The notes: a model not told the origin generated them from the letters alone. 25,176 nt of DNA from Promethearchaeota archaeon (GCA_048938025.1 JBHLMP010000011.1:1-25176); one strand, 5' to 3'. Shown: positions 16,177 through 20,374, numbered from the stretch's first letter. A program made the numbers and translations.

Positions 16177-17223
16177 TTAAAGATTTATAAGGCAATATTG
16201 AACAAACTTTAATGGTTCAATCGCACATCCTCCTGAATCTAATCCTCCAAGCTGGTCTATTAAATCTTGAGGAATCTCAGTATCCTTAATCCATAAATCT
16301 TTTAAGTTCATTAGAGATTCCAGACCTTTGATATTTTTTATCTGGTTATTACTCAAGTCTAATGTTTCTAATTTCGTTAATGGTTCTAAACCTTTAATTT
16401 CAATAATCTGATTTTCAGAAAGAAACAAGCTCTCGAGATTTGTTAATGTATATAATCCTTTAATATGAAGAATATTATTGTGTTTTAAATTTAAAATCTT
16501 TAAATTTGTACAATTATCTAACTCTTTTATTACTTCTATTTGATTTGAATTAAGCCAGAGATTAGTTAAATTTTTTAGAGCTTTTAAACCTTTTATTTCT
16601 TCAATTAAATTATTATTTAAATAGAGTTCTTGCAATTTTGTTAAATTCTCTATATTCGCTATTTCAGTTATATGATTTCCTCCAAGATTTAATACTTTTA
16701 AGTTCTTCAAGTTGTCTAAACCTTCAATTTTTTTAAGTTGATTACCAGCAATCCATAAAACTTCAAGACTTTTTAAATTCTCTAATCCGGATATCTCTGT
16801 AATTAAATTCCAAGAGAAATCTAATTTTTGTAAATCTTTTAGATTCTCGAGACCCTGAATTTTAGTAATTGAATTTCCTCTTAAATATAATTCTTTCAAA
16901 TTAGTTAAATTCTCTAATCCTTTAATCTCAGATATTTGATTACTTATTAAATGTAGAATTTCTAGATTTTCTAAACTTCCGAGACCTTTTATTTCTGATA
17001 TGCTATTACTTCCTAAGTTTAAAATCTCTAAGTTTTTGAGGTTTTCTAATCCCTCTATTTTTGATATCTCATTAGAACTAAGTTCTAAATGCGTTAGATT
17101 TTTTATTTTCTCTAATCCTTCTAGTTCATTTATATCTTTAATTTCCAGTAAGCCTAAATCTAGAAAACCATCCTCTACTTCAAATTTAGTACCAGCAAAT
17201 TCGACAAATTTCATAACTTTCAC
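16177..17223 (-). CDS. Leucine-rich repeat protein (SDS22-like, 22-aa repeats)
   Basis: Twelve complete repeats LxxLxLxxNxIxxIxGLxxLxx plus a partial one; start may be the ATG at 17214. Confidence 0.92.
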   Translation of the reverse strand: MKVMKFVEFAGTKFEVEDGFLDLGLLEIKDINELEGLEKIKNLTHLELSSNEISKIEGLENLKNLEILNLGSNSISEIKGLGSLENLEILHLISNQISEIKGLENLTNLKELYLRGNSITKIQGLENLKDLQKLDFSWNLITEISGLENLKSLEVLWIAGNQLKKIEGLDNLKNLKVLNLGGNHITEIANIENLTKLQELYLNNNLIEEIKGLKALKNLTNLWLNSNQIEVIKELDNCTNLKILNLKHNNILHIKGLYTLTNLESLFLSENQIIEIKGLEPLTKLETLDLSNNQIKNIKGLESLMNLKDLWIKDTEIPQDLIDQLGGLDSGGCAIEPLKFVQYCLINL

Positions 17224-17344
17224 ATAGAAATAACTTTCTTATATTATAATAATCCCTAATTTTTAATTATTGCAGAACTAAAATGTTTATACACTATAAA
17301 ATTAATATTTAAAAGAGATAAAAGTATCTATTTATTGTTATATT

Positions 17345-17458
17345 ATGGTTGTCTGTCAAAAATGTGGTCATTTATTAAATCAAATCGATAGTGGATATTA
17401 TTATTGTCCCTCTTGTAAAGATTTAACTTATTTTTTAGAATTTGTGTCTAAATGTTAA
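17345..17458 (+). CDS. Zn-ribbon/rubredoxin-like microprotein (37 aa), missed by the ORF track
   Basis: MVVCQKCGHLLNQIDSGYYYCPSCKDLTYFLEFVSKC*. Cx2C-x13-Cx2C with the same spacing and GxYYC motif as the ORFs at 18268 and 18537. Confidence 0.7.
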   Translation: MVVCQKCGHLLNQIDSGYYYCPSCKDLTYFLEFVSKC

Positions 17459-17533
17459 ATTAAATCTAAGATTTATACTCTTTAATAATTTATATTCAAT
17501 TACTTTAAATTTAAGATCAGTAGTATATTTAAT

Positions 17534-18058
17534 ATGAACGATGAAGAACCCCCTAGACCAAGTGGATTATCTATAGATACAAAAGCCCCACCATTTGACA
17601 CACAAGATATATATGAAAACGAAATGAAATTATCCAAACTTCTCGAAACTTATGATGGGGTGATGATAGACTTCTTTCGGGGAAATTGGTGAAGTCATTG
17701 CAAAAAACATTTAAAACTTTTGACTGAAAAAATATCAGAATTCAAAAAAAGAAACATAAAGCTTATCTCTATAGCTAGCGACAGTGTAAGATTATTAACA
17801 AAATTTAAAGAAGAAAATGGATTTACTGTTGACATTATCTCTGATCGTGGAGCCAAAATTGCTAAAGAATATGGTGTTTATTGGTTTGCTCCAGGTGGAG
17901 GTAAAAAGTACAAAATTAAACAAGCCGTACCTAGTAAATTTCTTATTAATAAAGAAAGAGAAATAGTATGGACATATATTGGTAAAGATAAAACCGACCG
18001 ACCTTCGATAGAATTAATGATAGAAGTTATTGATACAAAAATTAAAAATCCTGAATAA
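17534..18058 (+). CDS. Peroxiredoxin-like (AhpC/TSA, redoxin fold) selenoprotein, 174 aa, Sec at residue 53
   Basis: ATG 17534 is in frame with ORF 17720-18058. It reads MNDEEPPRPSGLSIDTKAPPFDTQD...VMIDFFRGNW-TGA(17690-17692)-SHCKKHL...LISIASDS...IISDRGAKIAKEYGV...VPSKFLINKEREIVWTYIG...DRP. The TGA sits at the first Cys position of the redoxin WCxxC motif, and a SECIS-like hairpin follows the stop. Confidence 0.9.
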
Positions 18059-18060
18059 GA

Positions 18061-18096
18061 ATGAAGCATGTGTAAAAAAATGAGACACATGCGGAC
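18061..18096 (+). promoter_or_regulatory. SECIS-like element in the 3' UTR (eukaryote-type AUGA/GA core)
   Basis: ATGAA-GCATGTGT-AAAAAAATGAG-ACACATGC-GGAC: perfect 8-bp stem (18066-18073 with 18085-18092), A-rich apical loop, UGA/GA non-canonical core. Begins 3 nt after the TAA. Confidence 0.82.
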
Positions 18097-18267
18097 GACC
18101 TTGCAATGGTTTTGGGATTACTTTCGAATCTTTTTTTAACTATTTCTGTTGAATTTTTTATTTATTTATTTTTTTGTTTAAGGACTTATTGTTAATTTAC
18201 TTGAAAAAAGACTTATTTCTAATCTATAAAAAGAATCTATTAAAATCTAGTTTGTTACATAAATAGT

Positions 18268-18456
18268 ATGAATATAATAGCTTGCAAAAAATGTGGTTTA
18301 ACCATAGAGAATAAGGAACCTGGTAACTATTATTGTGAAAATTGCTCTAAAGATATGAAATTTTTTAAAGTGGATGCATTTTGTGGAGGGAAACCAGGAG
18401 AACTTTATGATCATGATGATGATCATGAAGATAGAGATCATAACGTTATACATTGA
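18268..18456 (+). CDS. Zn-ribbon/rubredoxin-like small protein with His/Asp-rich tail
   Basis: CKKCGLTIENKEPGNYYCENC; tail DHDDDHEDRDHNVIH. Confidence 0.8.
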   Translation: MNIIACKKCGLTIENKEPGNYYCENCSKDMKFFKVDAFCGGKPGELYDHDDDHEDRDHNVIH

Positions 18457-18536
18457 AGTTGAATCTAAACATATTTCTTTATAGAAATATTTTATTTAGA
18501 AATGTTAAATTTGAATCTAAATCTTCTTTTTCTACT

Positions 18537-18695
18537 ATGAAAAAATATGCTATTTGTAAAAAATGCGGATTTACTATTGAAAATAAAGATCCTGGTAATT
18601 ATTACTGTCCTCAGTGTAAGAACGAAGGCCAATTTTTCAAATTAAAATTGTTTGATGGCTCTAAACCTGGTAAAGTATATGAAAAGGATAATTAA
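18537..18695 (+). CDS. Zn-ribbon/rubredoxin-like small protein (52 aa), tandem paralog
   Basis: The start is most likely the ATG at 18537: MKKYAICKKCGFTIENKDPGNYYCPQCKNEGQFFKLKLFDGSKPGKVYEKDN. It aligns without gaps with 18268-18456 (CKKCGxTIENKxPGNYYC..C, FFK, GxKPGxxY). Confidence 0.8.
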   Translation: MKKYAICKKCGFTIENKDPGNYYCPQCKNEGQFFKLKLFDGSKPGKVYEKDN

Positions 18696-19840: not shown

Positions 19841-20374
19841 ATGAATGCTGGTAAAAAATTAAAATTTAAAATCACTGTAATTGGGGACGGAAGGGTAGGA
19901 AAAACATCTTTAATTCAAAAATTCACCCTTGGTGACTTTGATACCAATTATGTTGAAACTATAGGAGCCCAATTTTCTAATTACGACAAGGAAATTAATG
20001 GAGATCACATTATATTAATATTTTGGGATATTGCGGGCCAAAGAGATTTTGATTTTTTACGCCCTTCCTTTTATAGGGAAAGCGATGCCGCTATCATTGT
20101 ATTTAGCCTTGAAGAGAATGATCTTGGTAGAGAAAGCTTTAAACATATATCAAATTGGCATGAAGATATTAAACGTTTTTGTGGAGATATCCCTATTATC
20201 TTATTCGCAAATAAGATCGATTTAATTGAGGAAGCTAATTTAAATCACTCTAGAATTCAAGAAATTGTGAATAATAACAATTTTCTTAGGTATTATACAA
20301 CCTCAGCTAAAACAGGGCAAGGAGTTCATGAAGCATTTAAGGCAATTATTGAGAAATTATATTTTCATTCATAA
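19841..20374 (+). CDS. Rab-like (Ras superfamily) small GTPase
   Basis: G1 GDGRVGKTS, G2 YVETIG, G3 WDIAGQ, LRPSFYR, G4 NKID, G5 TSAKTG; no C-terminal prenylation cysteines. Confidence 0.92.
   Translation: MNAGKKLKFKITVIGDGRVGKTSLIQKFTLGDFDTNYVETIGAQFSNYDKEINGDHIILIFWDIAGQRDFDFLRPSFYRESDAAIIVFSLEENDLGRESFKHISNWHEDIKRFCGDIPIILFANKIDLIEEANLNHSRIQEIVNNNNFLRYYTTSAKTGQGVHEAFKAIIEKLYFHS

Follow-up and report, generated by a model that had tools for sequence, protein, structure and literature searches.

Can an in-frame UGA codon in a peroxiredoxin-like gene of a Promethearchaeota archaeon be read as selenocysteine (Sec), and does the hairpin that follows the stop codon of this gene direct that reading? 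The locus lies on a 25,176-nucleotide (nt) stretch of DNA (GCA_048938025.1, JBHLMP010000011.1:1-25176), which is the whole window analyzed here and contig C76 of an assembly of 3.52 Mb in 88 contigs with 29% G+C. We conclude that positions 18047-18119 very probably form the Sec insertion sequence (SECIS) of a PrxL (“Prx-like”) selenoprotein mRNA from a Loki-type Asgard archaeon, of the class described as lokiSECIS or type I eSECIS-like. Under table 11 translation, the region consists of a 52-codon open reading frame (ORF; 17534-17692) and a 112-codon ORF (17720-18058) in the same frame, and with TGA read as Sec (U) it becomes a single gene of 174 codons ending in a UAA stop codon (18056-18058). 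The SECIS thereby exposes a PrxL gene that standard annotation splits into two ORFs.

The translated protein matches the Pfam families AhpC/TSA (3.8e-23, 82 bits) and Redoxin (1e-16), and the residues around the predicted Sec read F-F-R-G-N-W-U-S-H-C, with a W-U-S-H-C redox box of the U-x-x-C type. In alignments with solved structures, U53 corresponds to the first cysteine of the CxxC of ResA and to the threonine of the T-x-x-C of the peroxiredoxin 2ywn, in which the peroxidatic cysteine corresponds to C56. The protein therefore combines an AhpC/TSA or thioredoxin fold with a U/C-x-x-C in place of the T/S-x-x-C of peroxiredoxins, and on its sequence the host gene is a member of the PrxL selenoprotein family that was described from Lokiarchaeota (Mariotti 2016, PMC4989117). 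A sample of 121 genomes of this order yielded PrxL matches at E ≤ 1e-10 in 66, with orthologue alignments spanning residues 1-2 to 173-174. Each match covering residue 53 contains one or two in-frame TGA codons, and the three rows that contain none start at residue 73 or later. Some relatives carry a tandem second PrxL gene with two UGA codons (UxxU) about 230 nt downstream, with its own SECIS about 740 nt past the first.

A preliminary description of this locus, made from the DNA alone, had placed a hairpin directly past the stop codon, and the AUGA, the perfect stem of 8 base pairs (bp), the A-rich 11-nt loop and the GA are all present at 18061-18095 as it had them. The AUGA starts 2 nt past the UAA and is followed by A18065, after which GCAUGUGU (18066-18073) pairs with ACACAUGC (18085-18092) around the apical loop AAAAAAAUGAG, whose first five bases are A and which ends in AG; G18093, the GA and C18096 follow. 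Four of the eight pairs are G-C, which bears out the GC enrichment that had been pointed out for this stem in AT-rich DNA. The picture of a simple extended hairpin had to be replaced, as the fold is three-armed and includes a side hairpin that had been overlooked, in which 18097-18100 pairs with 18108-18111 around the loop UUGCAAU; this hairpin separates the GA from the 3' strand of the lower helix. The lower helix itself, which covers the last codons of the gene, is present in both the minimum free energy (MFE) and the centroid folds as proposed, but with 8 bp and not the 9 (18047-18055 with 18111-18119) of the earlier proposal. Folding of the 79 nt at 18045-18123 gave a Y-shaped structure with identical MFE and centroid solutions at -18.7 kcal/mol (z = -3.23), which 2 of 200 shuffled sequences equalled.

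Thirty PrxL loci, including the locus under study, were fetched and aligned with plain MAFFT (alignment A2). The element was present at the gene end in 30 of 30 loci, with an apical loop that numbers 11 nt in 26 of them and 12 nt in the other 4; its place is the same throughout these 30 loci and compensatory changes accompany it, as would be predicted by the preliminary description. Three loop adenines (18076-18078), the final loop G, the A of the GA core and the C after it are invariant in A2, and the core G is conserved in at least 90% of rows. Across the structure, 83.3% of cells were paired compared with 72.8% in shuffled alignments (0 of 500 reached the observed value) and at most 47.5% when the partners were slid by 1-3 columns. 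Two-sided changes were seen in eight of nine pairs of the upper helix, six of eight of the lower helix and one of four of the side hairpin, the last being 94.2% paired. A covariance model built from A2, and hence from PrxL orthologues only (R1), was then used to align 41 matches (alignment A3), in which two-sided changes extend to all eight pairs of the lower helix, all nine of the upper helix and two of four in the side hairpin. In 40 of 41 rows of A3 a G stands two bases before the AUGA, and in 40 of 41 a C follows the GA; we infer that this G pairs with this C, and the exception, the element on contig C72, can be read as A with U. R1 is a clean, covariation-backed model with three arms, fuller than the stem-loop in the available text of the published descriptions.

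The assignment of the UGA some 370 nt upstream to this element gains support from the remainder of the genome. A strict motif (ATGA-N9-AAAN7G-N9-[GA]A with at least eight of nine pairs) occurred nine times in the assembly, compared with 0, 0, 0, 0, 1, 0, 0, 0, 2 and 0 occurrences (mean 0.3) in ten genomes simulated with a first-order Markov model. At seven of the nine sites the motif overlaps, or comes within 15 nt of, the end of a gene or ORF that contains an in-frame UGA (Table 1), among them VhuD, VhuU and HdrA, which agrees with the expectation that the same motif would recur downstream of other UGA-containing genes. The two remaining motifs (C10:31234-31268 and C82:24568-24602) were taken as chance occurrences because no credible UGA-containing ORF lies upstream of them and their number fits the expected background. 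When the seven paralogous elements were aligned, the AUGA, five loop adenines and the final loop G were invariant, with compensatory change in nine of nine upper-helix pairs. The side hairpin appears in all nine elements of the genome that were folded (the seven paralogues and two behind SelD genes), with differing stem sequences. Searching the genome with R1, in which 150 of 3765 first-look candidates were scored, gave five matches at E ≤ 5e-5 (Table 1), and all five are located at the ends of in-frame-UGA ORFs; strong matches were confined to such ORFs. Among them is a third VhuD gene that joins the two found with the strict motif, and on fetched loci R1 also recovered the elements of HdrA, VhuU and the C72 ORF. 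In PrxL, VhuD, VhuU and HdrA, the UGA codons occupy active-site positions.

The genome also encodes the apparatus that such a reading would need, with tRNA-Sec, PSTK (as a PSTK-like gene), SepSecS, EFsec and SPS genes all present. SepSecS scored 484 bits, above its cut-off, and EFsec/SelB scored 243.7 bits. The tRNA-Sec gene gave a full-length match of 117 nt, with the anticodon loop CUUCAAA (anticodon UCA) and, in the Rfam model alignment, a 31-nt insertion in the T loop; ARAGORN reported no tRNA-Sec in three candidate loci because of this insertion. An intron of the same T-loop position and length has been described for Loki tRNA-Sec (Mariotti 2016, PMC4989117). Two tandem SelD (SPS) genes (C35:31639-34000, plus strand) each contain one in-frame UGA in the context F-G-U-N/S-C-K, and each is followed by a longer, type-II-like AUGA...GA structure with a side hairpin that carries a GCGA or GCAA loop. 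Loki and Thor species have been reported to possess multiple selD genes (Huang 2024, PMC11227280). Only two L7Ae-family genes were found in the genome, on contigs C3 and C14, in agreement with the reported lack of SBP2 in Archaea (Mariotti 2016, PMC4989117; Sun 2021; Peiter 2025, PMC11881835).

Table 1. Features of the PrxL locus (positions in the window), elements found elsewhere in the assembly (contig:positions) and Sec machinery. R1 matches are those at E ≤ 5e-5 among the scored candidates.
Feature	Position	Strand	Basis or host
Predicted PrxL selenoprotein gene	17534-18058	+	ORF with TGA read as U; Pfam; full-length orthologue alignments
In-frame UGA, predicted Sec (U53)	17690-17692	+	ORF; structure alignments; TGA in covering orthologue matches
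Whole putative SECIS, three-armed	18047-18119	+	MFE and centroid agreement, z = -3.23; R1, 88.8 bits on 18045-18123; covariation
Lower helix, 5' strand, within last codons	18047-18054	+	Pairs with 18112-18119; two-sided changes 6/8 (A2), 8/8 (A3)
Kink-turn core, 5' side: G18059, A18060, AUGA 18061-18064	18059-18064	+	AUGA invariant in 30/30 orthologues, 7/7 paralogues
Upper helix, 5' strand (A18065 mismatched)	18065-18073	+	Compensatory changes 8/9 (A2), 9/9 (A3)
Apical loop AAAAAAAUGAG, 11 nt	18074-18084	+	Sequence; invariant loop bases in A2
Upper helix, 3' strand (G18093 opposite A18065)	18085-18093	+	Sequence; covariation
Core, 3' side: GA then C	18094-18096	+	A and C invariant, G ≥ 90% in A2; C in 40/41 rows of A3
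Side hairpin (third arm), GACC-UUGCAAU-GGUU	18097-18111	+	Fold; 94.2% of cells paired in 30 orthologues
Lower helix, 3' strand	18112-18119	+	Fold; covariation
Run of 7 T, possible archaeal termination signal	18132-18138	+	Seen in sequence
Strict motif at UGA ORF	C76, 18061-18095	+	PrxL
Strict motif at UGA ORF	C29		VhuD, two Sec
Strict motif at UGA ORF	C85:3081-3115	-	VhuD, two Sec
Strict motif at UGA ORF	C54:16838-16872		VhuU
Strict motif at UGA ORF	C87:42198-42232		HdrA
Strict motif at UGA ORF	C72:82301-82335		ORF of unknown family
Strict motif at UGA ORF	C77:4318-4352	-	ORF of unknown family
R1 match, 88.8 bits	C76, 18045-18123		PrxL
R1 match, 50 bits	C66:23656-23735	+	Short 36-codon ORF
R1 match, 47.4 bits	C15		Third VhuD, two Sec
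R1 match, 37.7 bits	C29		VhuD
R1 match, 35 bits	C85		VhuD
Sec machinery cluster: SepSecS, adjoining tRNA-Sec, and on the opposite strand EFsec at a distance of about 3 kb	C48:21260-26818

Placed among the known classes of SECIS, the element stands closest to the lokiSECIS of PrxL, VhuU and HdrA-VhuD, which Mariotti 2016 (PMC4989117) describes as an AUGA, a 9-bp stem, an 11-nt loop and a GA (AA in VhuU) close to the stop codon, with a preference for A in the first five loop bases and an “ultraconserved” final G that mostly follows an A. The register of 4 + 9 + 11 + 9 + 2 nt right past the stop codon is that of the PrxL lokiSECIS, especially of the single-Sec PrxL.2, and the earlier statement that elements of this type are reported in Lokiarchaeota is thus borne out by geometry. 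The shared characters are the location near the stop codon, a UGA at a redox cysteine position of a Prx-like UxxC protein, the AUGA and GA flanking the stem, the stem and loop themselves, and the recurrence of the motif behind other selenoprotein genes (three VhuD, VhuU and HdrA, with a longer form at two SelD genes). Eukaryotic, archaeal and bacterial SECIS models alike miss both. The lowest stem position differs, being an A·G mismatch here compared with the published 9-bp stem, and the published text gives only stem, loop and core in contrast to the lower helix and side hairpin found here, which its supplements may show. The element also falls within all of the limits set for type I eSECIS-like elements, the major prxL form of Huang 2024 (PMC11227280): a core of GA_[G/A]A, no ministem, an upper stem of 7-15 bp in which up to two mismatches are allowed and an apical loop of 8-20 nt. 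That text speaks of a lower stem and internal loop, but not of a conserved side hairpin, which its supplements may again contain.

Likeness to eukaryotic SECIS type I is more partial. Both share the location in the 3' untranslated region (UTR), action at a distance, the AUGA/GA quartet, the unpaired apical adenines and a lower helix, but the helix above the core is shorter here, with 8-9 positions (a difference likewise noted in PMC4989117), a structured hairpin makes up the internal loop on its 3' side, and no SBP2 is known in Archaea. The preliminary description was right that the helix is short for a eukaryotic SECIS; its 8 bp, however, are the standard 9-position lokiSECIS register with A·G as the lowest position. 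Methanogen SECIS elements (with the GAA_A kink-turn-like bulge of PMC11881835) share the 3' UTR location, the PSTK/SepSecS pathway and aSelB and differ in core motif and shape. A bacterial-type SECIS, which would sit in frame just 3' of the UGA, is not apparent: 17688-17752 folds at only -5 kcal/mol (z = +0.42), with 128 of 200 shuffles as good, consistent with the distinction drawn earlier from in-frame bacterial elements.

A kink-turn set on a three-way junction is known as a k-junction. The element here resembles it in that a two-helix junction takes the place of the helix below the core and is closed by the near-invariant G-C pair (40/41 and 40/41), a likeness of secondary structure only. 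The side hairpin and three-way junction are not mentioned in the available text of Mariotti 2016, Huang 2024 and Sun 2021, although supplementary figures may show them, and a full-text literature search for three-armed archaeal SECIS returned no Asgard SECIS paper by title.

From these elements a working scheme can be put together. The RNA would form a three-way junction of the 8-bp lower helix, an upper arm (AUGA...GA core, 9-position helix and 11-nt loop) and the side hairpin, with a kink-turn core presumably built from tandem sheared pairs G18063·A18095 and A18064·G18094, as the conserved motif suggests. The A-rich loop and kink-turn would recruit EFsec/aSelB with Sec-tRNA(Sec) to a ribosome paused at the UGA, either directly or via a further protein, the candidate readers being an L7Ae-family protein or EFsec itself. 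The UGA, which lies 369 nt upstream of the AUGA, would then be decoded as Sec instead of stop, yielding a thioredoxin-fold redox protein with a U-x-x-C. The RNA is presumably made and so folded in the cell, with Sec inserted. The UAA stop of the PrxL gene fits the argument of Mariotti 2016 (PMC4989117) that a UGA at a large distance from the SECIS would be decoded as Sec. In VhuU (C54), VhuD (C85) and HdrA (C87) of this genome the stop codon is itself a UGA within the AUGA core of the SECIS, an overlap already published for VhuU.1 (PMC4989117).

Several observations weigh against this assignment. No Rfam family reached its gathering score in the entire window, and no Rfam SECIS family matched at E ≤ 10 on 17900-18300, including SECIS_1 (RF00031), which we take to be eukaryotic SECIS type I, so that the eukaryote-like character given in the preliminary description did not extend to a covariance-model match. 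The Rfam matches at E ≤ 10 on this segment (RAGATH-17, trypanosomatid mitochondrial rRNA and snR67) are at chance level and were set aside. For SECIS this null carries no information, as all of the 2016 authors' own models (archaeal, eukaryotic and bacterial) were blind to the Loki genes as well (PMC4989117). Furthermore, a Loki SECIS was non-functional in Methanococcus maripaludis (Peiter 2025, PMC11881835), and the available text of the published work contains no experimental demonstration of any working Asgard SECIS. Within the element, the lowest upper-helix position is mismatched here and unpaired in 18 of 30 orthologues, because of which a mismatch at this position is the rule for PrxL. 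The shuffle statistics are too favorable because the orthologues are kin, and A3, being fitted to the model, leans towards R1 and includes one weak row (15.8 bits). In the machinery, tRNA-Sec (34.6 bits) falls below its gathering score of 47 and the PSTK-like gene (139 bits) below its cut-off of 290.5. Lastly, in the metatranscriptome run X1, in which 5% of sampled words were present, there were only four contigs, from relatives at 90-95% likeness, that covered parts of 17580-17867, and none reaches the SECIS; being from relatives, they carry no information on expression of this gene or on its 3' end.

Since an AUGA...GA core is a generic kink-turn signature, the same structure might bind L7Ae or another protein for a non-recoding role, for instance in mRNA stability or in the control of translation of redox and hydrogenase genes, with the UGA a true stop or otherwise read. 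The two L7Ae-family genes, set in Archaea with no known SBP2, would suit such a role, and so would the R1 match on contig C66, which may not serve recoding because the UGA of its 36-codon ORF precedes the AUGA by only about 39 nt. We nevertheless regard this as very unlikely, as seven of nine strict motifs and all five R1 matches sit at the ends of UGA-containing ORFs, the UGAs of PrxL, VhuD, VhuU and HdrA fall on active-site positions, and the full Sec machinery is present. A true stop that splits a thioredoxin fold does not explain why the UGA is kept in each covering orthologue match.

A hairpin for transcription termination or protection of the 3' end, with no decoding role, would account for the 3' UTR location and for the run of seven T, and the run may indeed end the transcript past the SECIS. 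However, a bacterial-type terminator and promoter scan gave nothing relevant and no hairpin-plus-T-tract terminator at 17300-18400, 37 nt separate the T run from the main stem, and a terminator does not need AUGA, GA, loop adenines and a final G that stay invariant over 30 orthologues and seven paralogues while the stem varies freely; we give this explanation slightly less credence still. The least credible of the three is a chance hairpin in AT-rich DNA. A looser 96-nt cut does show a weaker fold signal (z = -1.64), matched by 14 of 200 shuffles, but the exact element reaches z = -3.23, and the ninefold occurrence of the motif against 0.3 expected and its conserved position and covariation in 30 of 30 orthologue loci already refute chance. 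Recoding of the UGA as Sec by the downstream SECIS is therefore the explanation retained here, and the suggestion to that effect in the preliminary description is upheld as far as genomic evidence reaches.

Neither the element nor its host family nor its eukaryote-like features are new. The instance is known in kind because PrxL elements were published in 2016 (PMC4989117) and catalogued in 2024 (PMC11227280), the latter in a survey of more than 400 Asgard genomes. As a type it provides the sole connection known so far between Sec decoding in Archaea and in eukaryotes, and the present instance adds no new kind. Where the instance may go further is in its shape, as a working Asgard SECIS could possibly be a kink-turn on a three-way junction that an archaeal SECIS reader recognizes only with the lower helix and the side hairpin (often with a GCAA-like loop) in place, a proposal that we put forward tentatively and would sooner expect to fail than to hold. 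If true, minimal constructs without the side and lower arms would fail, and what remains of the junction in eukaryotes would be the internal loop and helix I.

Use of the motif as a probe also flagged two families of UGA-containing ORFs outside the published Asgard selenoprotein lists consulted, an outcome that the preliminary description had raised as possible for a genome-wide search. One, an ORF of about 160 codons (C77:4361-4915, minus strand), has two adjacent in-frame UGA codons in the context H-A-D-U-U-A-D-V and a SECIS 5 nt past its stop codon. Of 121 genomes of the order, 98 contain relatives, and two or more TGA are present in nearly all of the matches; the UU pair was kept at 12 of 12 loci, and the pattern search found a SECIS at 10 of the 12. 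The 3.5 kb inspected at this locus showed no obvious ars genes. The other (C72:81916-82296, plus strand) reads S-S-S-T-U-T-L-A-F-C-G-N around its UGA, upstream of which there is no in-frame ATG, and has a SECIS 4 nt past the stop codon. Relatives of this ORF were detected in 40 of the 121 genomes, with one or more in-frame TGA in each of the 50 matches, the U being kept at 12 of 12 loci and a pattern-found SECIS at 7 of 12. Neither ORF matched a Pfam or NCBIfam family (E ≤ 1 and E ≤ 0.1), and both are absent from the seven Asgard families of Huang 2024 (PMC11227280) and from those named in the available text of a 2026 review (PMC13188914), which assigns the largest archaeal selenoproteome to isolate bin41.

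The R1 match on contig C66 lies 12 nt past its 36-codon ORF, which has a hydrophobic middle and reads M-K-R-E-K-K ... S-I-S-P-UGA-T-P-UAA. In one relative, S-I-S-P-UGA and an identical SECIS core are kept, with A-S-E-N after the UGA. This locus could be a tiny peptide with a C-terminal Sec or an orphan SECIS.

The HdrA ORF (C87:40150-42240, plus strand) comprises 696 codons with TGA read as U, with two in-frame UGA codons before the AUGA core. It has its own SECIS at its end, with none shared with a downstream VhuD, and its tail (..L-P-E-I-E) resembles that of the VhuD on contig C85. According to the available text of Mariotti 2016 (PMC4989117), HdrA always ends in UAA or UAG; as this HdrA, unlike that rule, has the UGA within its AUGA core as stop codon, its sequence suggests a deletion that fused HdrA to a VhuD tail.

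Leucine-rich-repeat and Ras/Rab-like GTPase proteins belong to the eukaryote-like signature proteins that Asgard genomes typically encode. Both flank the PrxL locus, the former as a protein of 348 residues (16177-17223, minus strand) and the latter as a small GTPase of 177 residues (19841-20374, plus strand). Just 3' of the SECIS, two small adjoining ORFs (18268-18456 and 18453-18695, plus strand) encode paralogous zinc-ribbon-like proteins with C-K-K-C-G...Y-Y-C-x-x-C followed by F-F-K, the stop codon of the first being overlapped by the second.

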